From NCBI GenBank assembly GCA_963697545.1, contig CAVOOL010000022.1, positions 12,979 through 76,978 of the forward strand: DNA of 64,000 nt. The letters are read 5' to 3'. The translations under genes and the position numbers were made by a program. Numbering within the stretch: the first letter of the stretch is position 1; the number at the start of each line of letters is the position of its first letter. The notes under the pieces were generated by a model. That model searched no databases. It saw only the letters and a list, made by a program, of their open reading frames with translations, and was not told the DNA's origin. Positions 2,283 through 61,109 of the stretch are shown here, one piece after another. Origin of the DNA: an uncultured Bacteroidota bacterium. GTDB lineage: Bacteria > Bacteroidota > Bacteroidia > Chitinophagales > Chitinophagaceae.

Positions 2283-3092
2283 ATGAACGAAGATTTTACA
2301 AACGAAGTGGAAAGACGATGGGCACGTCATGAAAGGAGCAGCCGTCGCGGACGTGTATGGGCCGGTTTTTTCCTGCTACTGGTTGGCGGACTTTTATTGC
2401 TGAAAACTTTAAATGTATTTTTTTTCCCTGCCTGGTTTTTTACATGGCCTGTGTTTCTTGTGGCTATTGGTTTATTCATCGGTGCAAAACATGGCTTTCG
2501 CGGCGGCTTTTGGCTCATCCCGATTTTAATTGGCGGATTGCTTCTGGCCAATGAGGCCGATCCTTCTCTTCGCCTGGACCGGTTCATTGCACCCTTCATC
2601 ATTATAGCCATTGGTCTCGTCTTCATCTTTCGTCCTAAAAGGCATGACTGGCGAAAATGGAAACGGGGCGGAGCTGAATGGCAGGAAGGAAAAACTACTG
2701 CGCCTGTGTCAAATAACGTTGCAGGCGACACAAATGCTTACACCGCAGACCGCAGGGATTTTATAGATGTGACAGCCGTATTTGGCGGCGTGAAAAAAAA
2801 TGTACTGAGTAAAAATTTCCAGGGGGGTGATATAGTGAGCCTTATGGGTGGTTCTGAAATTGACCTGACGCAAGCCGATTTTACCGGAAGAATTACCATT
2901 GATGCAACCAACATTTTTGGCGGCACCAAGCTAATCGTTCCTCCTACATGGGATGTGCAAAGTGACATCACCGCCATCTTTGGTGGCGTGGATGATAAAC
3001 GGCAGATCAGTGGCGTGAACTTAGATCCAAACAAAGTATTAATTCTTGATGGCACCTGTATGTTTGGCGGGATTGAGATCAGAAGTTTCTAA
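2283..3092 (+). CDS. LiaF-like membrane protein (cell-wall antibiotic response; DUF5668/DUF2154 type)
   Basis: Four TM segments then repeated (A/S)(V/I)FGG beta motifs; start taken as MNEDF. Confidence 0.8.
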   Translation: MNEDFTNEVERRWARHERSSRRGRVWAGFFLLLVGGLLLLKTLNVFFFPAWFFTWPVFLVAIGLFIGAKHGFRGGFWLIPILIGGLLLANEADPSLRLDRFIAPFIIIAIGLVFIFRPKRHDWRKWKRGGAEWQEGKTTAPVSNNVAGDTNAYTADRRDFIDVTAVFGGVKKNVLSKNFQGGDIVSLMGGSEIDLTQADFTGRITIDATNIFGGTKLIVPPTWDVQSDITAIFGGVDDKRQISGVNLDPNKVLILDGTCMFGGIEIRSF

Positions 3093-3168
3093 GTGCCCCG
3101 TTTTATAAATGCAGCAATACTTGACAGGGTTGTTGCTAATTTAAATTACCTATCTAAAACATTTGTGT

Positions 3169-3529
3169 ATGAAATGGTATTTGGCAAAAATGGTTTACCG
3201 GATCATTTGCGGAGATGGCCGGCACACCCCACAGTTTGATGAGCAGTTGCGTTTGATAGTGGCAAGCAACGGGAGCGAAGCATTTGACAAGGCTGTTACT
3301 ATGGGTATGAAAGAGCAGGAATCCTTCCTGAATCAAAAGAATGAACTGGGTGCAATGGCAGTTTGTAAATGTTCCGGAAGTGTACCGGTTGAGCAAACTA
3401 ATTGATGGCGCTGAAATTTATTCACGCATCAACGAAGTGGAGGATGCAGAAGCATATACTACTTTCGTGCACAGCAAAGCCGGATCTATCCAGGATAAAC
3501 AGATACAGCAATTGCAGAATTTAATTTAA
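3169..3529 (+). CDS. DUF4288-like protein, one frameshift near 3349
   Basis: MKWYLAK...FDEQLRLI...A..KA joined to VQWQFVNV...DGAEIYS in the next frame. Confidence 0.7.
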
Positions 3530-3533
3530 ATCA

Positions 3534-4589
3534 TTGGCTACTTCACCACTAAAAAAAATGCGCTTCCGGCTGGTATTTGCCATTTGCTGGTGCCTGTGGA
3601 CTCTTCTGCATGCCTTTGTGCTGAACTGGTTTGGTTTTTCCTGGAAAATGGCCATCTGGGATAGTCTTATAAGTAATTTTTTACTGGTAAGTGCATCTAT
3701 TTTAATAACGGTTACACTTCAATTTTATATCCCCCAAAAAAATAAATACGGATATATTTTAGGATTGTGTGTAGCCCTTTCCCTAACATGGCTTTTAATA
3801 AGCCGCAGCATTTTAATTTTTTTATCGGATGATTCAAGAGAATACGCTACATTTTTTTCACAGTCTGTTCCCATTCGTTTGGCTATTGGTTTCCTTATTA
3901 TTGGGTGCATGGCTTTGGTAAGTGTTTTATGGTACACCATCCAGGACCAGCAGGAAATTGAAAAAAGAAAAGCGGAAGCTGAAAAGTTGTCGAAAGAAGC
4001 GGAGCTGTATAAGCTTCGCCAGCAGTTGCAGCCCCATTTTCTTTTTAACAGCCTGAATTCCATCAATGCATTGATTGGTTTGCAGCCGCAGCAAGCCCGG
4101 ACGATGATACAGCAGTTGTCAGACTTTTTAAGAGGTACGTTAAAAAAAGAAGAACATCAATGGACAAGTCTTACTGAGGAATTGCAGCACCTGCAGTTGT
4201 ACCTGGAAATTGAAAAGGTTCGTTTTGGCCACAGGCTTTCTACCAACGTTCAAAACGATGCAGATGACTCTTTGTATCTGCCTGCCATGCTGTTGCAGCC
4301 GGTTGTGGAAAATGCCATCAAATTTGGCTTGTATGATACAACGGATGTCATCACCATCAGCATTGAAGCAAAAAAGGAAGAAAATAACTTAGTCGTCGTG
4401 GTGAAAAATCCATTCGATCCGGAAACCAGTTCTCCTAAAAAAGGAACCGGTTTTGGACTAAGCTCCGTGCAGCGAAGACTGTATTTATTATTTGCCAGGA
4501 ATGACCTGTTGCAAACAGAAGCAAAAGAAAAAGTATTTATTACAACCATTAAAATTCCCCAACCAAATGATCAGGGCACTAATAATTGA
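3534..4589 (+). CDS. LytS/YehU-type sensor histidine kinase
   Basis: Four TM segments, QLQPHFLFNSLN, LQPVVENAIK and GTGFGLSSV motifs. Confidence 0.9.
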   Translation: MATSPLKKMRFRLVFAICWCLWTLLHAFVLNWFGFSWKMAIWDSLISNFLLVSASILITVTLQFYIPQKNKYGYILGLCVALSLTWLLISRSILIFLSDDSREYATFFSQSVPIRLAIGFLIIGCMALVSVLWYTIQDQQEIEKRKAEAEKLSKEAELYKLRQQLQPHFLFNSLNSINALIGLQPQQARTMIQQLSDFLRGTLKKEEHQWTSLTEELQHLQLYLEIEKVRFGHRLSTNVQNDADDSLYLPAMLLQPVVENAIKFGLYDTTDVITISIEAKKEENNLVVVVKNPFDPETSSPKKGTGFGLSSVQRRLYLLFARNDLLQTEAKEKVFITTIKIPQPNDQGTNN

Positions 4590-5310
4590 CGATGAGCCGC
4601 TGGCAAGGTCTATTGTGAAAGAATATTTGCAAAGCTTTTCACAGGTAGAGCTTTTACAGGAATGCGGCGATGGCTTTGAAGGTATAAAAGCCATTATGCA
4701 ACACCAGCCCGATCTTATTTTTTTGGATATACAAATGCCAAAGATCAATGGCTTTGAAATGCTGGAATTAATTGACCAGCCGCCAGCCGTTATTTTCACC
4801 ACAGCGTTTGACGAGTATGCCATCAGGGCTTTTGAAACACATGCGGTAGATTATTTATTAAAACCCTTCAGTAAGGAACGGTTTGATAAGGCGCTGGATA
4901 AATTCTTCAACCAGTCTGTTTTACAAAGCCAAAAAAAAGCCACAGAAGAGTTGCTTCAGTCAACAACAGAAATGACCGCACAACAGGAACGCATTGTGGT
5001 AAAAACCGGTGGTAAGATCCGGATCATACCGGTGCCCGATATCCAGTATCTGGAAGCGGCGGATGATTATGTAAAAATCCATACGGCCGAAGGAAGCTTT
5101 CTGAAGAATAAAACCATGGGCTTTTTTGAAGCCGCTTTGCCTCCCAATGAATTTGTGCGAACGCACCGTTCCTATATCATTAACGTTAAAGAGATCACCC
5201 GGATCGATCCTTATGAAAAGGAAAATCATTTAGCCATTTTAAGATCAGGGGCAAGAATTCCTGTAAGCAAAAATGGTTATGGAAAATTGAAAATGGTGCT
5301 GGGGTTATAA
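4567..5310 (+). CDS. LytTR family response regulator
   Basis: REC domain (IIDDE, FLDIQMP, DYLLKP) plus LytTR domain (FVRTHRSYIIN); start taken as MIRAL. Confidence 0.92.
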   Translation: MIRALIIDDEPLARSIVKEYLQSFSQVELLQECGDGFEGIKAIMQHQPDLIFLDIQMPKINGFEMLELIDQPPAVIFTTAFDEYAIRAFETHAVDYLLKPFSKERFDKALDKFFNQSVLQSQKKATEELLQSTTEMTAQQERIVVKTGGKIRIIPVPDIQYLEAADDYVKIHTAEGSFLKNKTMGFFEAALPPNEFVRTHRSYIINVKEITRIDPYEKENHLAILRSGARIPVSKNGYGKLKMVLGL

Positions 5311-5931
5311 TTCAAACACAATGGGTTTGTTCATTAGTTCAAAAGAGTCGTTGGTTAAACTGGCATTAATGAATTTGATGCCGAAGTTTTTGGTGGTTCC
5401 ATACGATTCATGAATGTGTCCAAACACATGAACCTGGGGATTTATTTCCTGAATGGTGTTTAGCAGGTCTTTGCATCCTACATGACGGTCATTACCGGTC
5501 TGGTCAAGAATTCCAAAAGGCGGCCCATGAGTGATCAATAGATCTGTATCGGAAGGAATCTGCGTCCAGTGCTTTTGTATCTCTCCTCCCCTTGTGCGGT
5601 TAAACGCCCAATTAAAAAATTTAGGTGTTATGGGCGAACCCCAGATGTTGATGCCATTAATGGAAGTGCCGCTGTCATTCAAATAGATAATCCCATCCGG
5701 AATGAGTTTGACAAGGTCCTTCTCTTTTATTTTTTCAAAGAGAAAATCATGGTTGCCGGCAATAAAAATTTTATGTTCAAAGTCTTGTTTGCCAAACCAA
5801 CTGAGGAAATCTTCCACTTCTAATTTTTCTCCCCGGTAAGAAATATCACCTGCATGAATTAATACATCTCCTTTGGGCAATTTCACGCCCCTGTGTCTGG
5901 AATGCGTATCGGCAAGTACTACAAATTTCAA
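5305..5931 (-). CDS. Metallophosphoesterase (calcineurin-like)
   Basis: DTH, HAGD, GNHD, HGPP and GHIHE motifs. Confidence 0.88.
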   Translation of the reverse strand: MKFVVLADTHSRHRGVKLPKGDVLIHAGDISYRGEKLEVEDFLSWFGKQDFEHKIFIAGNHDFLFEKIKEKDLVKLIPDGIIYLNDSGTSINGINIWGSPITPKFFNWAFNRTRGGEIQKHWTQIPSDTDLLITHGPPFGILDQTGNDRHVGCKDLLNTIQEINPQVHVFGHIHESYGTTKNFGIKFINASLTNDSFELMNKPIVFEL

Positions 5932-5948
5932 ATGGCTTTTGCAATTTA

Positions 5949-5977
5949 AAAGCTGTCCCGCATTGCGGGACAGCTTT
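5949..5977 (-). terminator. Strong hairpin, likely intrinsic terminator
   Basis: AAAGCTGTCCCGC-att-GCGGGACAGCTTT. Confidence 0.6.
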
Positions 5978-6030
5978 AGAAATTAATAAATGAATTGCCT
6001 ACAAGTATCTCATCAATGAACTTTTTATAG

Positions 6031-6208
6031 TGTGAGTGGTGAGTGGTAGTGGTGAGTAAAGCCACACTGGTAGCAAACCACGTGAAACGTGAGACGTGAG
6101 ACGGAGGCCTCTTTCTCTTCTGTCATCTATCAACTACCATCTATCATCTTAATAGCCGTCTGGTATAAGAGAGCTTCCCTCACCATTCACCACTGACCAC
6201 TCACAAAA
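6031..6208 (+). repeat. Dispersed repeat copy 2, bounded by inverted heptamer arms
   Basis: GTGAGTG-type arm at 6031-6057 pairs with the TCACCAC-type arm at 6179-6205; 6081-6208 matches 2028-2160. Confidence 0.9.
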
Positions 6209-6227
6209 GGCAGTTGTGCAATGGCTT

Positions 6228-6431
6228 CTATTTTTTTTTCCGGTCTGTTGATTGATTCCTGTTACTTGCCTGGTCTCTTTTTTTGTCTTCTGGTTGAGAT
6301 CTCTTCCCTCCTGTTTTTTCACCATGATTTGATTTTCCGGCATTGGCTGCCTGCCCAAACGGCTGGTTACTTTGATTGCTGGCTCCGCGGCCGGCGCTGC
6401 CACTTTTGTTGTTATCACCTCTTCCCGCCAT
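6228..6431 (-). CDS. Small hydrophilic, probably disordered protein (67 aa)
   Basis: G/S/N/Q/K/R-rich; A-rich leader before the ATG; sigma54-like box upstream. Confidence 0.6.
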   Translation of the reverse strand: MAGRGDNNKSGSAGRGASNQSNQPFGQAANAGKSNHGEKTGGKRSQPEDKKRDQASNRNQSTDRKKK

Positions 6432-6473
6432 GATTTATTTTTTTTATTGTGAATGATAATTAAACTTTATTGC

Positions 6474-6488
6474 GCAGTAATTGTGCCA
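6474..6488 (-). promoter_or_regulatory. sigma54-like -24/-12 promoter
   Basis: TGGCAC-aatta-CTGC. Confidence 0.55.
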
Positions 6489-6502
6489 TTAAAATTTCTA
6501 CG

Positions 6503-8563
6503 ATGTATTGTAAAACCAAACTTCTTTTTAGCTGCTCGTTTCTTTTTGTTTCTTTTTTTACTCAGGCACAGGATTTAGACAGCACCAAGGAAACGCAGTT
6601 GCCGGAGGTAGTGATCAGGGCTTTTGAACAAAACCGCCGGTTAAAGGACGTTCCTGCTGCCATCAATTATGTAGGCAGGCAAACGCTGGAAAGATTTAGT
6701 CCGTCTTCCATTGTAATGGCCGTTAATACAACACCCGGTGTACGCATGGAAGAACGTTCGCCGGGAAGTTTTCGGTTTAACATTCGCGGCAGTTCGTTAC
6801 GTTCGCCATTTGGCGTGAGGAACGTAAAGGTTTACTTCAACGACATTCCCATTACCGATCCCGGCGGAAATACCTACCTCAATCAACTGGGTTATTACAA
6901 CTTCAACTCAATAGAAATTATAAAAGGCCCCGGCAGCAGCTTGTATGGAGCCGGAACGGGAGGCGTGCTGCTTATAGAAAGTATGAGTGAAGCCGAAAAG
7001 CCATCTGTGTTTGCCGAATATGCCATGGGTAGCTATGGGCTGCAAAATATATATGGTGCCGTCACATCCGGTAACGGGAAATGGATCAGCCGGGTTGGCT
7101 TTCAGCATCAGAAAAGTGACGGGTACAGAGATCATTCTGCATTAAAAAGAAACGTACTTAGCTGGAACAGCCTCTTCAAGCCCGATGAAAAACATCAGCT
7201 CAAAACCACTTTTTTATACGGCGATCTTTTTTATGAAACGCCCGGCGCCTTAACGCTGGCGGAGTATAATTCCAACCCGAAAATGGCAAGGCCAGGCGGC
7301 TTTGGCTTTCCTGGTGCTGAACAAGCCAAGGCGTCCATCACGCAAAAAACCTTTATAGCCGGTGCTTCTTACTGGCAACAACTGAGTTCGCAATGGCAAA
7401 ACAAAACGGTTGCTTATGGCATGTTTACAGAATTGCGTAATCCTACTGTTCGCAATTATGGCAAGAGTTCTGAGCCACATATGGGGGCCCGAACCTTTTT
7501 CAAATTTGAACAGCCTTTTACCAATGCAAAATTTAACTGGGATATTGGTGGGGAATGGCAACAGGGGTTGCCTTCGGTAAGTATTCATAAAAATGTGGGC
7601 GGCCAGCCGGATTCGTTACAGAGCTATGATGAAATCAACAACCTGCAATACTTTGTATTTACACAGGCTGTATTGGATGTTAAAGAATGGACAATAACTG
7701 CCGGCGCCAGTTGGAATAAATTAAAAGTAGGCCTGGAACGCTTTCAACCGGCAGCATTAGGCAGACAGTCGCGAAGTTTTTCCAATGAAATAGCACCCCG
7801 GTTTTCTCTTTCCAGAAAACTGAAAGATTTTACCATTTACTCAAGTGTTTCCAAGGGCTTTTCTCCCCCAAGCACCGCCGAGTTAACACCTACAGGTGGC
7901 GCCATAAACTTGGGCTTAAATGCAGAAGAAGGCTTCAACTATGACCTGGGCGTAAAAGCGGGTTTTCAAAACGGATTGTATGTGGATGTGAATGCTTTTA
8001 TTTTTTCTTTGAATAACGCCATTGTGCAAAGAAGAGATGCAGGTGGCGGCGATTATTTTGTGAATGCCGGTAAAAAGCAACATGGAATTGAAACCTATAT
8101 CAGTTATCCTTTTTTGCAGTCCGGTAGTTTTATGGCCAGAAGCTTGTTTTGGGTAAGCCATACCTGGCACGATTTCCATTATAAAAGCTTTAAGCAATTG
8201 AACAGTGATTTTTCCGGAAAGGCCTTGCCTACCGAGGCGCCTCACACCATTTCTACTGGTTTTGATTTTACCGCGAACAATGGATTACTGGGAAATGTGA
8301 CGTATTACTATAGCGGTAAAATTCCATTGAATGATGCCAATACAGAATATGCGGCTGCCTATCATTTACTGGGTGCCAAGTTAGGTTATGAAAAATGGGT
8401 GAAGCAGGCGATGCGGATTAAATTTTTTGCAGGGATAGAAAATTTACTAGATCAAAAATATAGCTTGGGCAATGACATAAATGGCTTTGGTGGCCGCTAC
8501 TACAACGCAGCAGCCGGTAGAAATTATTACGCATCCCTGGTGTTACAATGGAATTATAAATAA
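6503..8563 (+). CDS. TonB-dependent receptor
   Basis: Signal peptide, plug (IEIIKGPGSSLYG) and C-terminal NLLD..Y...GRNYY barrel motif; start taken as MYCKT. Confidence 0.9.
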   Translation: MYCKTKLLFSCSFLFVSFFTQAQDLDSTKETQLPEVVIRAFEQNRRLKDVPAAINYVGRQTLERFSPSSIVMAVNTTPGVRMEERSPGSFRFNIRGSSLRSPFGVRNVKVYFNDIPITDPGGNTYLNQLGYYNFNSIEIIKGPGSSLYGAGTGGVLLIESMSEAEKPSVFAEYAMGSYGLQNIYGAVTSGNGKWISRVGFQHQKSDGYRDHSALKRNVLSWNSLFKPDEKHQLKTTFLYGDLFYETPGALTLAEYNSNPKMARPGGFGFPGAEQAKASITQKTFIAGASYWQQLSSQWQNKTVAYGMFTELRNPTVRNYGKSSEPHMGARTFFKFEQPFTNAKFNWDIGGEWQQGLPSVSIHKNVGGQPDSLQSYDEINNLQYFVFTQAVLDVKEWTITAGASWNKLKVGLERFQPAALGRQSRSFSNEIAPRFSLSRKLKDFTIYSSVSKGFSPPSTAELTPTGGAINLGLNAEEGFNYDLGVKAGFQNGLYVDVNAFIFSLNNAIVQRRDAGGGDYFVNAGKKQHGIETYISYPFLQSGSFMARSLFWVSHTWHDFHYKSFKQLNSDFSGKALPTEAPHTISTGFDFTANNGLLGNVTYYYSGKIPLNDANTEYAAAYHLLGAKLGYEKWVKQAMRIKFFAGIENLLDQKYSLGNDINGFGGRYYNAAAGRNYYASLVLQWNYK

Positions 8564-18526: not shown

Positions 18527-19172
18527 CTATTTACGGTTCTTGCGGCGGTCGCGGTGCTTTAAGATAGGAACCTTGCTTTCGCTTCCCTTTAATGAGCCTT
18601 CCAATGTTTTTTTGATGCGTAAGAAGGACGAGCATAGCTACGGTAATCGCAAATATGCGGTAAAGCTTTTCGGGTTCATTAAAAATAACAAGGATAAAAA
18701 TGGGGAAAGCGATACTGGCCAAAATAGAGCTTAAGGAAACCCAGCGGGTCAGATAAAGTACCAGAATAAATACGCCGACACAGCATAAGGCAACATTTGG
18801 CTGAATGCCCAGTACCATTCCAAAAAGACAGGCCACGCCTTTTCCTCCTCTGAATTCGGCCCAAACGGGGAAAATATGACCAAGTACGGCAGCAAGACCA
18901 AGGCCTAATTGCATATTGACCAGGTAGATATCATTGTCAAAAGAATCAGGAAGAAAGAAAGCAAGCTTAACAGCAATGATTGCCTTTACCATATCAGCAA
19001 CCATTACAAATGTGCCCCATTTAGGACCCAGTACACGATAGGTATTGGTAGCGCCGGAGTTTCCACTACCATATTCTCTGATATCAAAACCGAAAAAAAT
19101 CTTACTAACCCAAACGGCTGTAGGAATACTTCCAATTAGATAAGCGAGGACAATTAATAAAACCTCATTCAT
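18527..19172 (-). CDS. plsY: Glycerol-3-phosphate acyltransferase, probable frameshift near 18571
   Basis: YLIGSIP, GSGNSGATN, GHIFP..FRGGKGVA and HQKNI motifs; corrected C-terminus ESKVPILKHRDRRKNRK. Confidence 0.93.
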
Positions 19173-19246
19173 AGAATAATGGTTGGTTGAAGCAGAACAA
19201 AAATAATAGAAAATCTCAAAGGATTCATGTTAATTTAAACGCGGCA

Positions 19247-20054
19247 TCAGTTTTTGTTAGTGAATAGTAAGGAGATCCAGTTATTCTTTTCTGTTTGTTT
19301 CACCAGCTCAAGTTCGTTTGCATTACACGCCTGAATAATATCTTCTCCATCGCTGGTCATAAGACCGCTTAATAATAAGTATCCATCTTCGGCTAACATT
19401 TTTTTCAGTTGGGGTAAATATTGAAGAATGACGTTCCGGTTGATGTTGGCTAAAATAATATCAAACGCTTGGTCCGGAAGTATAGACGACAATTGGATGT
19501 CGATATTGCGGCACCCGTTTTTTTCTATATTCTCTTTTGCATTTTCAATGCTCCATATCATCCACATCAATTGCTGAAACCCTTGCTGCGCCTAGTTTTT
19601 CTGCCAATATCGCCAGTATGCCGGTCCCGGTTCCAAAGTCAAACACGGTTTTGCCGGTGAAATCAATTTCTGCCATTTGCTCAATCATCATGTAGGTTGT
19701 AGCATGATGGCCGGTGCCAAAACTCATTTTGGGCGTGATGATGATTTCATGTTCCATGTTTTGTACTGGTTCATGAAAATCGGCTCTTATCGCACAAAAA
19801 TCATCCACGATCACAGGTTGGAAATTACTTTCCCATACCTCGTTCCAGTTTTGTTCTTTTATGGTTGTCATTGTAAACGAGTAATTGTGCAAAAGCCGGT
19901 TTACTTCGTAGCTGTCAAAATTGTTTTCGGCAAAATAGGCGATCAGGCTGTCTTCCGTTTGCTCAAAACCGTTAGCACTTAATTCATCTAACTGGCTGAT
20001 CAGGATCTCTTGTTGTTCTTCATTCGCCTGGATCGTTATCTGGATACTGTTCAT
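19247..20054 (-). CDS. prmA: Ribosomal protein L11 methyltransferase, frameshift near 19555
   Basis: PKMSFGTGHHATT and DFGTGTGILA, then ILANINRN and LLLSG in the second frame. Confidence 0.92.
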
Positions 20055-20067
20055 TGTATAAAATTAA

Positions 20068-20091
20068 AAAGGCTGTCGGTTGACAGCCTTT
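20068..20091 (-). terminator. Terminator after pnp
   Basis: AAAGGCTGTC-ggtt-GACAGCCTTT. Confidence 0.75.
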
Positions 20092-20110
20092 CATTAGAAA
20101 CTAAATATCA

Positions 20111-22401
20111 TTATTGTTCATTCTGATCGGTTCCTGTTTCCCGGGCACTTTCCTGCTGACCTGCCCTGGTTTCTTTCGATCCGTGGCCTTTCTCCACGCT
20201 GTCCTTCAACTCTTTGGCCGTTTCCTTCGCGGGGACGTTCATCTCTTTGCCCTTCCGGCTTCGGCAACAATATTTTTCTGGACAACTTGAATTTACCGGT
20301 TTTTGGATCAGTGCCGGTCAATTTCACTTTTACCTTATCACCTTCGTTTAAAACACCTTCCAGGGTTTCCAAACGCTTCCAGCTTACTTCAGAAATATGC
20401 AACAAACCTTGTTTACCCGGCAAAAATTCAACAAATGCACCATAAGGCATAATGGATTTTACAACGGCTTCGTATTCATCACCAACAGTTGGCACCGCCA
20501 CAATTCCTTTCACCCAGTTGTGCGCCTTGTCTACTTCTTCTTTATCTGTACCAAAGATGCTAACTTCACCCATGTTGTTCTTTTCTTCAATATTGATGGT
20601 AGTACCGGTTTCACGTTGAATTTCCTGGATCACTTTACCACCAGGCCCGATCACCGCGCCAATAAATTCACGGTCAATAAACATTTTCACCATTCTTGGT
20701 GCATGTGGTTTCACATCCGGTCTGGCCTCTGGCTATGCAATTATACATCGCATCCAGAATATGCAATCTTCCGCGACGTGCCTGCTCCAGTGCCTGGCGC
20801 ATCACTTCCATGCTTAAACCATCTACTTTAATATCCATTTGGATACCGCAGATACCATCACGGGTACCGGTTACTTTAAAATCCATATCACCCAGATGAT
20901 CTTCATCACCCAGGATATCGGTCAGTACAGCAAACTTATCCATCTTTGGAGATCAAGACCCATCGCTACACCACCAACGTGTTTTGGAATAGGAACACCT
21001 GCATCCATTAATGCCAAGTGAACCGGCACAAACCGTAGCCATGGAAGAAGAACCATTTGATTCAAGGATATCACTCACTACACGAACTGTATAAGCATAA
21101 TCACCACTTGGCATCATTTGCTTTAGAGAACGCTTCGCCAGGTTACCATGACCTACTTCGCGGCGGCCCGGACCTCTTAAAAATTTTACCTCACCGGTTG
21201 AAAATGGAGGGAAATTATAGTGTAAAATAGAATTTGGAATAATCTGATTTAGCAGCACTTTCAACCAGCAATTCATCTAAAGGAGTACCCAAGGTAACTG
21301 TTGTAAGTGATTGTGTTTCACCTCTTGTGAACAATGCAGCACCATGTGGAGTAGGAAGTACATCTACTTCCATATCCAGTGGACGAACATCTTCCAGACC
21401 TCTTCCATCCAAGCGGATCTTGTCATTTAGGATCATATCCCGAACGACATGATACTGCAGATCGCCAAAATAATTTTTTACCAGTTTTTTAATGTCATCC
21501 GCTATTTCTTCACCTTCAGGAAGATTGGCTTCCTTGGTCAGAGTTTGCTATGATTTCTTCTATAGATTGCATTATATGCTTCTTTGCGTGCAGCTTTTTG
21601 CAGGTTGGCTCTTGAAAATGTCAGCCATTTTATTCTGTAGCCGAGTTCATTCTACCCTTTTCTCCAATAGTCTCATTTGCTTCAGGTTTTGGATAGTCTC
21701 TTTTTCGTAATACACCTACCATATCTCTCAATTCCTGCTGTGCCTTTATCTGAACACGAATGGCATCATGAGCAACTTCCAATGCTTCAATAAGGTCTTC
21801 TTCACTGCATTCCTTTGCTTCGCCTTCCACCATCATAATGTTCTTTTCGGTGGCGGCAATGATAAAATCCATATCTGACTTTTCCATTTCGCTACGGGTC
21901 GGGTTGATTATGAACTGACCATCAATCCGACTAACCCTTACTTCAGAAATAATTTCCTGGATGGGAATGTTAGAAACCGCCAGCGCAGCGGAAGCAGCAA
22001 GACAAGCCATCGCATCGGGCATGATTTCCGATCGGAAGAAATAAGCGTAACAATTACCTGCACTTCGCAGAAATAATCTTCAGGGAAAAGCGGACGTAAG
22101 AGCTCTGTCAATCAGGCGGGAGGTCAATATTTCACAATCGTTGAGCCTTCCTTCTCTTTTAAAGAAAGAACCCGGAATACGACCGGCAGAAGCAAATTTT
22201 TCCATGTAATCTACGCTTAATGGAAAAAAGTCCTGTCCTTCTTTTGGTTCTTCTGTGGCTACTAACGGTAGCTAAAAGAATACAGTTGCCCATTTTTACG
22301 GTAACTGAGCCATCGGCCTGGCGGGCAAGGCGACCGGTTTCCATGGTCACTTCGCGGCCATCGCCTATATCAAATGTTTTACTGAATTTTTGTGATAACA
22401 T
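20111..22401 (-). CDS. pnp: Polynucleotide phosphorylase, at least six frameshifts
   Basis: [53 protein letters not shown] (IGPGGK) and S1 domains across fragments; downstream of rpsO. Confidence 0.95.
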
Positions 22402-22891: not shown

Positions 22892-22963
22892 TTTATGAAC
22901 CCGGCAAGAATTACTTTGGCTTCTTCTGCTCGAAGCTGACTACGTTGCGTCGCACTCTTGTAC
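22892..22963 (-). repeat. GTACAAGAGTGCGACGCAAC-family repeat
   Basis: Exact 20-mer at 22944-22963 (minus) plus a tail ending GTTCATAAA. Confidence 0.85.
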
Positions 22964-24776: not shown

Positions 24777-25684
24777 TTATACGAATATTTCCGAGGCCAG
24801 TTGCAGGCTTTTTTGCAAGGCTTCTTTATTTAAATTACCAGTGAGCTTTTTTTCTTCCAGATAGGAAATGATGAATTCCGTATTCATATTTCCCACCAGG
24901 TCGTCTTGTGCCATGGGACAGCCGCCAATACCTTTTAAGGCCCCGTCAAAACGCCTGCAGCCGGCATTTACAGCAGCTTCCAGTTTCTCTTTCCAGTTTG
25001 TTGGTGTGGAATGAAGATGAACACCGAAAACAATATCCGGATATTTAGGAATTAAAGAATTTAAGGCAAACGAAATTTGATCAGGCGTTGCCAATCCAAC
25101 GGTGTCTGCCAACGAAATAATTTTAATGTCTCTTTTTACCATTTCATCAGCCCATTTCAATACGATTTCTTCATTGTAATCGTCGCCATACGGGTTGCCA
25201 AATCCCATGCTTAAATAAATAACCAGTTGCTTTTTATTCTGTAAACATAGATTTTGTATCTCCTCTACCCTGGTCAAACTTTCTTCCATGGTACTATTGG
25301 TATTTCGCTGCTGAAAAGTGGGTGAAATGGAAAAGGGAAATCCCAGGTAGGTTATGGCTTCATAAGCCATTGCTTCTTCGGCTCCGCGAACATTTGCTAC
25401 GATAGCCAACAACTTCGATCTTGTATCTTCCAACTTCTAACTTGGCAATAACTTCCCTGGTATCTGCCATTTGCGGAATGGCTTTGGCAGAGACAAAACT
25501 TCCAAAGTCAATGGTATCAAATCCAACCTGTAGCAGGGAATTGATGTATTCAATCTTTTTTTCAGTGGGAATAAAATGCTTCCATCCCTGCATCGCATCC
25601 CTGGGACATTCTATAAGTTGAATTCCCCCTGTCCCCCTAAAGGGGAGACTTAGATCAGTGAAGTGCCTTTTTTATCTCAGACAT
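24777..25684 (-). CDS. Hydroxymethylglutaryl-CoA lyase, frameshift near 25425; start uncertain and inside a repeat element
   Basis: IECPRDAMQG, DFGSFVS..AIPQMADT, GVHLH and GIGGCPMA motifs. Confidence 0.88.
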
Positions 25685-25922
25685 TTATTCATAATTGTAA
25701 TATTACTATGCAAAAAAAATGTATTAGTGAGACTAAAATTCTAAGACTTGCTTGCACAATCTGAATAGCCTTACAGAACGTATAAGAGTGCGACGCAAAA
25801 AGATGAAGTAGCAATACTAGCTCAGTACTAAAAATTAATATTCAGAACTAAAAAATGTTTGAGACGGAAATAAACTAAGCCACCTAAGTCCTAAGTCGGT
25901 CCCCTTTAGGGGGACAGGGGGA
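25624..25922. mobile_element. MITE-like element of about 300 bp with 30-bp inverted ends and an internal AAGAGTGCGACGCAA repeat
   Basis: TCCCCCTGTCCCCCTAAAGGGGA..GACTTAG at 25624-25653 and inverted at 25891-25922; repeat at 25780-25833; no transposase. Confidence 0.65.
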
Positions 25923-26679
25923 GTCGCTGTTTCATGGCTTCGTACAAGATCATTCCTGTGGCAACGGATACATTCAATGATTCAAAATCACCTGTCATAG
26001 GAATCTTGAATTTTTCATCACATACTTTCATCAGGGCCGGATAAATTCCTTTTTCTTCACTGCCCATTATAATGGCAGCCGGTTCTTTAAAGTCAACCTC
26101 AAAGACGTTTTTTGCAGCCGTCATTTCACTGGCTAAAACCTTAATGCCATTTAAATGTAATTCGTCAACGGCTTTCATTAAACTGTTGACGCGGCAAATG
26201 GCAATTTTTTCCAAAGCACCGGCGGAGGTAAGCACGGCATCTTCATTTAAGGCGCCAACGCCTTTGTCAGGAATAATGATGGCCTGTACGCCGGTACAAA
26301 AAGCTGTCCGGGCAATACCGCCAATGTTCCGCACATCCGTAATGCCATCCAGTATTAAAAAAAGCGGTACTTCACCTTTTTCAACCACCCACGAAATTAC
26401 TTGTTGCAAATCCTGGTAATGAACTTTTGAAAGCAAGCCAACACAACCTTCATGGTCTGGTATATTAAAGCTGTTTAGCTTTTCAACAGGCACATAATTA
26501 ACCGGAATATTGTGCTGTGCGGCCAGATTTTTGATCTGGCTGATGGCATCGCCAACTGCCTTTGTGTAGAGATAAATCCGGTCTAAAGCTTTTCCTGATT
26601 GTATGGCTTCAATAAGGGCATTTCTTCCAATAATGAGGGAGCTCTTTTTGGGTCTATGCTGGGGTCTGAAATTTTTCAC
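25906..26679 (-). CDS. rlmB: 23S rRNA (G2251-2'-O)-methyltransferase
   Basis: LDGITDVRNIGGIAR, MGSEEKG and SLNVSVA SPOUT motifs; GTG start. Confidence 0.93.
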   Translation of the reverse strand: MKNFRPQHRPKKSSLIIGRNALIEAIQSGKALDRIYLYTKAVGDAISQIKNLAAQHNIPVNYVPVEKLNSFNIPDHEGCVGLLSKVHYQDLQQVISWVVEKGEVPLFLILDGITDVRNIGGIARTAFCTGVQAIIIPDKGVGALNEDAVLTSAGALEKIAICRVNSLMKAVDELHLNGIKVLASEMTAAKNVFEVDFKEPAAIIMGSEEKGIYPALMKVCDEKFKIPMTGDFESLNVSVATGMILYEAMKQRLPLSP

Positions 26680-26731: not shown

Positions 26732-27216
26732 CTATTGCTTCTTGCTGATAGCCAAAGGAAAAGCGATAAGAAGAAAAAGCACAACAACGCCAACCAGGAT
26801 AAATTTGATGACAGCGCAGTAAAAAACTACTTGCATAACAGAGGGTTGAAACCGGCTGCTAAAAGTCAGTAACATCAGGAAATTTTCCAGGACATCGAAA
26901 CCGGCGGCTGCAACGGCCATTGAAATGGCCCGGTCACTCCAGTTTCCCATTTCAACCTTTGTTTAATGAACCTGATGGCCGCAATAAAAAACCAGGTGTA
27001 GGCAGCAATGAAAAGAAAGTCCAGGAGAATATTTAGTGTAACATTATCAGCGTTCCAGAATAACTGCAACTGGTGTAACCGTTCAGGCGTTTTTGCGAAT
27101 TCCAGGTCGAGGATACCATTTTGACTTACCGGCGTAATCAACGTGCTGCCCTGCCAGCGCATGATAAAAATGCTTGCCAGCAATAGTAAAAAAGAAATGA
27201 GAATGCTTCTTTTCAT
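26732..27216 (-). CDS. Hypothetical membrane protein, frameshift near 26945
   Basis: Two hydrophobic ORFs (LDFLFIAAY; FDVLEN) that join into one four-TM protein. Confidence 0.7.
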
Positions 27217-37035: not shown

Positions 37036-37372
37036 GTTGCGTCGCACTCTTGTACGTTCGGTAATGCTAATGGGCAAGAGAAAATGAACCACAGCGAACA
37101 CAGAGGAGCACAGAGATTTAAAACATGTTCTCTCGCCGTGTTCTCCGTGTCCGCTGTGGTTAAAAATTGGCTACCAAACATCCATAACAACCTTTGCTAA
37201 GGGTAAGACATTCCATTTCTTCAAGAAATGGAATGTCTCTTTTAAAATTTCTGTGATCTCTGTGTACACCTCCGTGGCTCTCTGTGGGCCAAAAAAGATG
37301 AATAGAATTGTTGCAGTTGAAGAGTGCGACGCAACGAAAGCTAAATAGCAGCCATGCAGCTTAGTTCATAAA
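37036..37372. repeat. Composite palindromic repeat island
   Basis: Outward-facing AAGAGTGCGACGCAAC copies at 37036-37055 and 37316-37335; ACCACAG/CTGTGGT hairpin at 37087-37161; perfect 15-bp stem at 37206-37238. Confidence 0.85.
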
Positions 37373-60720: not shown

Positions 60721-61109
60721 TTTTTGATTACCGGCTGCATGGCTACTATGGAACTTCTGTTGCGCTGCGTCCGGCTAATGACGGATCGCACTCTTGTACT
60801 GTAACAATTCTATGCAACAAGACCTCGGAGGTTTTAGAAACCTCCGAGGTCTTCAGGTTTAGTCCACAGATCCCTCGTGCCTCGGGATGACAAGGTTGAA
60901 GCGATACTGATTTCAATCACTCCAACTATCAGAATAACTGCTAAAAAGATATCGCTGTTTGTCATGCTGACGAAGGAAGCATCTATGGCTAATACAATAA
61001 GGAATATTGCCTGTGGTAGTGCACTTTCAGTGTTGCTGAATAGAAAACCTTGCGTACAAGAGTGCGACGCAACGAAGGTTAAATAGTAGTAACACGGCTT
61101 AGTACAAAA
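60721..61109. repeat. Composite palindromic repeat island
   Basis: Outward-facing CAAGAGTGCGA copies (minus, ending 60799; plus, 61054-61073); hairpin AAGACCTCGGAGGTTT-taga-AACCTCCGAGGTCTT at 60819-60853; GGGATGACA...TGTCATGCTG pair. Confidence 0.85.

Follow-up and report, generated by a model that had tools for sequence, protein, structure and literature searches.

In a contig of an uncultured Chitinophagaceae bacterium, a short inverted-repeat element lies between rlmB and an HMG-CoA-lyase-like gene, both on the minus strand. The initial annotation, made from the sequence alone, suggested that the ends of this element had become coding sequence on both sides. The question raised by this locus is whether an inserted repeat can provide the end of one gene and the beginning of the next. 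We analyzed the window, which is the whole stretch of 64,000 nucleotides containing the locus, together with related genomic and metagenomic sequences. The features concerned are as follows.

25906..26679, minus strand: rlmB (23S rRNA Gm2251 methyltransferase), TIGR00186 match, intact
25624..25922, minus strand: whole element, 299 bp, with 23-nt perfect inverted ends
25891..25922, minus strand: rlmB-side arm, CTCCCCCTGTCCCCCTAAAGGGGACCGACTTAG, coding for the rlmB tail LPLSP and TAA (25908-25906)
25759..25840, plus strand: conserved core module, GCTGAATAG..GTATAAGAGTGCGACGCAA..GTAGCA..GCTCAGTAC
25654..25692, minus strand: leader region with two ATGs and an A6 run (25668-25673)
25624..25653, minus strand: lyase-side arm, outward reading ...DLSLPFRGTGG fused straight to IQLIECP
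24777..25623, minus strand: HMG-CoA-lyase-like gene, in two frames as assembled (25440-25623 and 24777-25433)

Structure of the inverted-repeat element

The inverted-repeat element, initially put at 300 bp, proved to be 299 bp long, and its arms (25624-25646 and 25900-25922; 23 nt, 100% complementary) were separated by 253 nt. The arm 23-mer occurred only at these two sites in the 64 kb (0 expected from shuffles), and they formed the only arm pair in the window. The length of 30 bp first given for the inverted ends was roughly right, since the two ends remained similar up to ~32 nt (apart from a 2-nt indel) and, less clearly, up to ~75 nt, but perfect complementarity was confined to 23 nt. Read in the direction of the genes (minus strand), the element was polar, with a stop-bearing arm followed by an AT-rich interior with the conserved core, an ATG leader and the second arm. 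In the predicted fold of the sense RNA, the two arms paired over 31 bp (MFE -103 kcal/mol, z -6.7).

The 299 bp contained no ORF of note. A gene for DUF559, a Vsr-like PD-(D/E)XK endonuclease carried by larger copies of the repeat family described below, was not found in the window. Rfam returned chance-level matches only for the element and, elsewhere in the window, only a tRNA. A scan for sigma-70 promoters and terminators, which is uninformative for Bacteroidota, yielded 3 weak promoter-like sites (1.6 expected) and 0 terminators.

A copy of AAGAGTGCGACGCAA was present in the element at 25784-25798, and the window contained 5 copies (0.11 expected). The initial annotation had taken this CAAGAGTGCGACGCAA-family copy to be nested inside the element. 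The copy is indeed present, but it is a recurrent part of the ~280-bp family members of several genera and is not nested. The whole core module (25759..25840) is common to the ~280-bp elements of other genera, which share interior sequence including the AAGAGTGCGACGCAA core.

The module also stands alone in the window. AAGAGTGCGACGCAA cores with a ~50-nt tail were located outside arm pairs at 22945-22959, 37037-37051, 37320-37334 and 61058-61072; those at 37037 and 37320 form an inverted pair around other hairpin repeats.

Termination of rlmB within the element

The rlmB gene reads into the arm and takes its stop codon from it (...QRLPLSP-TAA), as the initial annotation stated. The 3' end is ...AMKQR-LPLSP-TAA, in which the last five codons and the stop (25908-25906) lie within the arm. 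RlmB scored 175.1 bits against the TIGR00186 RlmB equivalog (cut-off 160.15). Further, the SpoU_methylase profile was matched at positions 2-142 of 142, and the complete SpoU domain extends to residue 246 of the 257 residues. In the inward direction, one arm frame contains stop codons (TAA in the loop and TAG in ACTTAG). Because of these stop codons, rlmB ends in LPLSP*, and termination within the arm leaves its catalytic domain intact.

Empty and filled sites at the junction in relatives

The closest relatives form a recombining group with ~88-95% nucleotide identity. According to the initial annotation, the proposal would fail if relatives lacking the element had the same gene termini, and we found the termini to be different. 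In two relatives (L001 and L212) the site is empty: rlmB ends in ...AMKQR-LFEK*, followed by 13 nt and then by ATG-FNHSA-IQLIECP, that is, a lyase beginning MFNHSA-IQLIECP. Among 80 further metagenome loci, those with the two genes adjacent most commonly had a junction of 26 nt, the stop of rlmB and the ATG of the lyase sharing bases (ATGA). Such a stop/start overlap is the classic arrangement for translational coupling. Because relatives hold empty sites or the ATGA overlap, the element can be seen to have replaced 26-46 bp of the junction. The last four codons of rlmB, its stop, any spacer and the first five to seven codons of the lyase were lost at insertion. Thus, in the lineage of the window, the stop/start junction of the co-transcribed rlmB-lyase pair was replaced by the element.

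Filled sites were also found. In L002 this position is occupied by the orthologous element, with 84% identity over 312 nt, and L211 and L213 have the same arm type and left boundary with different interiors. Further, contigs of four soil/rhizosphere runs pass from the lyase gene or rlmB into the arm. In L002, which is a clean assembly, loss of a G from the arm has produced an in-frame TAG four codons ahead of VQLIECP, and the lyase is without a canonical start, indicating that the arrangement can also be broken. The lyase gene of L002 could be inactive, or ATA could be its start codon. The two arms of L214 are decayed repeats; nevertheless, the old TAG still terminates rlmB (...QRSPLFAGGET*), and a TTG within the element is still the start of the lyase. 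A borrowed stop and leader retained in a decayed element is as expected of sequence that has turned into coding sequence.

Lyases with arm-derived leaders were scattered on a poorly resolved tree of mosaic lineages, suggesting either that the junction was hit more than once or that an old polymorphism was spread by recombination. We also considered whether all 271-aa lyase homologues contain the element. This was rejected, and L006 and L011 simply have mis-called starts.

Two other variable features were observed at this locus. The lyase N-terminus of L005 (3001-3050) contains a short tandem repeat, CAACCAGT x3, read as QPVNQ.., so that the first few lyase codons are freely variable among relatives. 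Directly upstream of rlmB, an Xre-like antitoxin gene and a RES-domain toxin gene are present in L002 (474-1399), L003 (1001-1926), L005 (1286-2212) and L213 (111-1036); the pair is missing from the window and L001, which have a 145-aa gene there instead.

A repeat family of Chitinophagaceae

The arm belongs to a unit of ~32 nt consisting of (G/T)CCCCCTG, a TCCCCC-N4-GGGGGA hairpin with a constant stem and a variable loop, and ACTTAG(R)T. A genome scan with the arm pattern detected more than 117 stretches, and all matches listed were from Chitinophagaceae or Chitinophagales. The carriers include the cultured strains Flavisolibacter longurius BT320 and Flaviaesturariibacter amylovorans JCM 17919. 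Family statistics were obtained from 8-kb loci around the pattern matches. Among the matches listed, there were ~35 inverted arm pairs, 110-810 bp apart and mostly 230-300 bp. In soil metagenomes, the summed depth was 2400-6700 for the arm and 90-460 for the core stretch, compared with ~15 for the flanks. We consider it probable that the element of the window belongs to a family of small mobile elements that is widespread in Chitinophagaceae and whose members are probably non-autonomous.

Some arms were amplified locally. L118 contains four tandem copies of the 32-nt arm unit at 4143-4270 (CCCCCTGTCCCCCTAAAGGGGAGACTTAGAAA), and partial arm duplications were observed in L030, L052, L064, L074 and L098.

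A locally evolved, non-mobile structured intergenic region, that is, a REP-like pair of terminator or stabiliser hairpins overlapping both genes, would account for the strong RNA fold, for the position of arms at the 3' ends of ORFs, as in REP sequences, and for the lack of target-site duplications. However, presence and absence differ among very close relatives, in which the empty site is ancestral in form. Near-identical arms also occur at hundreds of unrelated loci across genera, ~280-bp copies share interior sequence, and some copies carry an endonuclease gene. This reading is already largely refuted by the empty sites, and we regard it as very improbable.

Stop codons and leaders supplied by family members

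The relationship between arm and upstream gene seen in rlmB was common in the family. Among the matches listed, an inward ORF of at least 100 codons was found at 107 of 158 arms. It ended at most 12 nt before the arm in 61 of the 107 and within the arm in 30, either at +14 (PLSP*, as in rlmB) or at +26 (PLSPxGGT*); only 4 ORFs read deeper into the element. The PLSP* tail was found at 9 other arms and PLSPxGGT* at 15 (again among the matches listed). Because only one of the three inward frames holds a stop, these stops within the arm represent a strong bias.

In the outward direction, six arms among the matches listed had ATG[AT]CNGA[AG] 45-75 nt inside the end. The window is the sixth, at 61 nt and not 60. 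In all five others, also among the matches listed, the ATG is 59-60 nt inside and in frame with ORFs of 193-520 codons. These five are as follows.

L097: leader MSEQNKEGVSLSLPSRGTGG, 520-codon EmrB-like MFS gene, located after an HlyD-family gene
L064: leader MSEKKKENIDLSSPTGGQGA, LeuD, located behind a 496-residue ORF of LeuC size
L036: leader of the L097/L064 kind, tryptophan 2,3-dioxygenase (TDO)
L020: arm leader, nitronate monooxygenase (NMO)
L031: arm leader, metallo-beta-lactamase-fold (MBL) protein

In L097, LSLPSRGTGG precedes the MFS gene in the same peptide frame as the arm of the window. In F. longurius BT320, the predicted arm leaders are MTEERAGNTNLSSPTGGQGA- (NMO) and MSEEQNSNNHLSSPTGGQGA- (TDO). 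The leader-led ORFs are real genes: Pfam matches start directly behind the leader, at residues 22-36, in NMO, TDO, LeuD and MFS, and at residue 63 in MBL. Further, the lyase homologues P0041, P0071, P0084, P0090 and P0095 have arm-derived leaders fused to LIECP (for example, MPNNNKESLNLSSPTGAQGA-, MKQFQKNKEITNLSPPIGRQGA- and MQQQNSKDNSNPSSISGGQGA-). The leader pattern extends over 20 codons, M-S/T-E-...-LS(L/S)P-x-(R/G)G(T/Q)G(G/A). Thus, at the level of sequence, a leader that opens ~60 nt inside the element and runs through the arm into the downstream gene is present in five other genes and several lyase homologues. An ATG in the GTGG frame was found at 25 of 165 arms among the matches listed, indicating that the leader belongs to a subset of copies and not to every arm.

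Tryptophan 2,3-dioxygenase with an arm-derived leader was observed in two genera (L031:5595-6800 and L036:3835-4938). The enzyme of L036 also has an arm-coded tail, ..GFGPLSPG*, and that of L031 has an in-frame GC-rich repeat insert in the middle of the protein, ..VSPPPGEPEGA...

The start of the lyase gene in the window

As assembled, the lyase gene of the window gave no full-length match to PRK05692 / PF00682 in a single frame; profile positions 13-70 and 79-281 of 300 were matched by separate fragments whose frames differ. The gene is intact in relatives (284-287 aa). In agreement with the initial annotation, the conserved N-terminus begins at the left end of the element without a start. 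The lyase frame upstream reads *KRHFTDLSLPFRGTGG-IQLIECPRDAMQG, and it contains no ATG, GTG or TTG between the TAA at 25674-25672 and Met13. ATG#1 (25692-25690) is in the lyase frame and is stopped by this TAA at codon 7, and ATG#2 (25684-25682, MSEIKK...) lies 61 nt away from the boundary and is out of frame by a single surplus base. When the A6 run (25668-25673) is shortened by one A, the reading becomes MSEIKRHFTDLSLPFRGTGG-IQLIECP, as had been predicted. The corrected leader MSEIKRHFTDLSLPFRGTGG is equal to that of L097 in length and pattern, and its motif ATGTCTGAG agrees with the leaders of L097, L064 and L036. The second, internal frameshift near 25430-25438 consists of one extra base in the window, and the contig of every relative is one base shorter there. 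The initial annotation had overlooked this frameshift, ATG#1 and the many single-base insertions described next.

Single-base differences of this kind were frequent. When compared with L001, the window had ~24 single-base insertions in ~10.5 kb of aligned coding sequence (~30 over a 13-kb region) and a handful of deletions, and many of the insertions were duplicates of the neighbouring base. About 20 of them were in PNPase, which is split into 5 ORFs. No such coding indels were detected between L002 and L001. Given the ~24 insertions in ~10.5 kb, both frame problems of the lyase gene are probably errors. On balance, we favor the reading that both arose in assembly and that the real gene encodes MSEIKRHFTDLSLPFRGTGG-IQLIECP. 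The true sequence would then be A5 instead of A6, without the extra base near 25430-25438, and the lyase would be made as MSEIKRHFTDLSLPFRGTGG-IQLIECP... The earlier proposal that start and leader peptide both come from the element is supported by the five other elements and the lyase homologues; in the window, the in-frame reading needs a one-base correction. Given the assembly error rate, neither programmed +1 frameshifting (at A_AAA_AAG) nor read-through of the TAA that stops ATG#1 is needed, although both are conceivable. The window was not found in public sequencing runs (at most a share of 0.15 of the sampled words was matched, owing to relatives), and the interior of the element was in none of the public runs searched.

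The insertions relative to L001 were located at 18531-21276 and also at 26732-27216, 28727, 23771 and 19557, and affected the 145-aa gene beside rlmB, GSCFA, PrmA and a 485-aa gene as well. With so many single-base insertions in conserved genes, frame-based findings anywhere in the window need caution.

The frame problems could also be taken at face value. The element would be real and the lyase dead in the window, its start lost by the insertion and the internal frameshift a true later lesion, and only rlmB would benefit. The window as assembled, with no in-frame start and a frameshift near 25430-25438, agrees with this, as does the L002 copy, a clean assembly with an in-frame TAG and no usable start. 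However, single-base frame calls in the window are unreliable, since the neighbouring housekeeping genes contain ~24 insertions of one base (~20 in PNPase), and the extra base is missing from every relative. An in-frame leader is present in other family members and in lyase homologues, and the dN/dS of the lyase on the branch of the window was ~0.08 (S 10, N 3), similar to that of neighbouring genes. Because the lineages are recombination mosaics, this low value, based on few changes, need not reflect evolution after the insertion. We consider a dead lyase rather unlikely.

In another reading, the lyase is alive and the ATG of the element is unused, the start being ATT at 25623-25621, ATA three codons on, or Met13. 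The ATT sits exactly at the boundary in the window, ATA-GAA-TGT is common to the window and L002, and gene callers chose Met13 in L002 and L009. Further, the leader itself begins with TTG in L009 and L214, indicating that non-ATG starts do occur here. A start at Met13, however, would cut off the invariant ECPRD motif, which in HMGL-like enzymes we take to hold the catalytic Arg and the metal-binding Asp. The 20-codon leader, matching that of L097 in length and pattern, also argues against a start outside the element. A start at the boundary would have a GC-rich hairpin immediately upstream, and such a hairpin should be unfavourable, since mRNA structure tunes translation initiation in Bacteroidota (PMC6847099). 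A start of this kind is therefore quite improbable, and we retain translation from the ATG of the element as the preferred reading.

A lyase homologue beginning MSEIKLIECP (P0004) raised the further possibility that MSEIK is the lyase's own start, kept after insertion. This was rejected: the Ser codon differs (TCT vs AGT), the extended inverted repeat includes this segment, with GTCTCAAACATTT as its mirror image at the other end, and unrelated genes carry the same ATGTC(A/T)GA(A/G) leader.

If the leader is used, a selfish repeat can enter the tightest parts of bacterial genomes without killing either neighbour. Repeat DNA would further become permanent protein, as PLSP C-tails and as 20-residue leaders (LeuD, EmrB-like, TDO, NMO and the lyase). 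Gene callers mis-start or truncate such genes, as in the lyases called from Met13 in L002 and L009, and repeats of this family break metagenome assemblies.

Comparison with known repeat systems

REPINs are short doublets tied to RAYT transposases. Like Correia elements (CREE/NEMIS) and REP/REPIN sequences, the family described here is multi-copy, hairpin-forming, co-transcribed with its neighbours and enriched at gene ends, and a hairpin is present in each arm. In contrast to Correia elements, which are Neisseria-specific and have a TA target duplication, the family has no detected target duplication.

The element agrees with a classical bacterial MITE in size and termini (299 bp, no transposase gene, 23-nt TIRs) and in its presence at many unrelated sites (>117 stretches, ~35 inverted pairs and the metagenome depth). 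Unlike in a MITE, no consistent direct repeat indicating target-site duplication was found at 34 arm pairs; instead, 26-46 bp of the target are missing. In Geobacter uraniireducens, the Chunjie MITE (Chen et al. 2008) is described as lying within an operon that was left undisturbed by the insertion (PMC10969869, PMC3184786). In those accounts, Chunjie resembles the present family in its MITE size, terminal inverted repeats and very stable RNA fold, and has 9-bp direct repeats (target duplications) and 21-bp AT-rich TIRs, whereas no direct repeats were detected here and the arms are GC-rich hairpins.

Neisseria REP2 and the Borrelia IR are dispersed repeats from which the downstream gene receives an ATG initiation codon; a promoter and a ribosome-binding site, neither of which was evident in the present element, have also been ascribed to them (PMC3184786). 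The delivery of translation signals, including the ATG, is shared with the present family; REP2 and the Borrelia IR, however, lack terminal inverted repeats and do not provide the gene upstream with a stop.

Rickettsia palindromic elements (RPEs; Ogata et al. 2000) are short palindromic repeats inside coding sequence that are translated within host proteins (PMC10969869). The likeness to RPEs drawn in the initial annotation holds for the way of working and fails for membership. At the ORF level, open frames run through arms into and out of genes, and the arms are readable in host ORFs as PLSP*, LSLPFRGTGG and LSSPFGGQGA (the last in MetH). In contrast, sequence, taxon (Bacteroidota) and architecture are unrelated to those of RPEs: all matches listed were from Chitinophagaceae/Chitinophagales, and Rfam gave no match. 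Further, whereas RPEs are inserted in the middle of proteins, the present family lies mostly at gene boundaries, where it gives stop and start codons, and some copies carry a DUF559 nuclease gene. By its sequence, taxon, lack of any detected target duplication or transposase, and DUF559 association, the family is not a member of the systems compared here (RPE, Chunjie and REP2/IR).

DUF559 copies and insertion

No transposase was seen with the arms of the family. L095 contains a free-standing DUF559 gene (PF04480, E 2e-32) between inverted arms, and the 530-bp copy of L059 contains a decayed DUF559 remnant. DUF559 modules also precede a like-oriented arm in L044, L061 and eleven MetH loci. The link of DUF559 to the family is an association only. 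The nuclease might drive mobility via break repair, and with such repair-based insertion both the deletion of target DNA and the lack of a target duplication would be accounted for. Homing endonucleases are known to include a Vsr-like family (PMC2677866). The DUF559 copies resemble the genes of this family in invasive insertion in conserved genes (between arms, and in MetH); unlike Vsr-like homing genes, they involve no intein or intron, and the arms occupy hundreds of sites compared with one homing site.

The element would be compatible with translation on both sides, offering a stop inward and an ATG with a leader outward. The arm-to-arm RNA stem may tie initiation of the lyase to translation of rlmB; one could speculate that ribosomes finishing rlmB within the 5' arm would open this stem. 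We tentatively propose that a translation-transparent, endonuclease-linked family can occupy overlapping stop/start junctions within operons, and even loops in essential proteins (for example, MetH), that are closed to ordinary transposons, that its ends become fixed as coding sequence, and that the arm-to-arm stem may rebuild the coupling, although we hold this combined model to be less than evenly probable. Since cultured strains carry the family, the start, the stop and the role of DUF559 are directly testable.

In MetH, a DUF559 (Vsr-like) module of ~165 aa was found in frame in a loop of the activation domain (L026:3200-6475), and likewise in L016, L053, L057, L077, L085, L089, L108, L113, L124 and L128. 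The insert consists of DUF559, then an arm read as ..NLSSPFGGQGA, and then D(F/Y)xGAFAVT. This arrangement is conserved across several genera and resembles nuclease insertion without an intein. In the MetH of L089, DUF559 lies between two direct arms.
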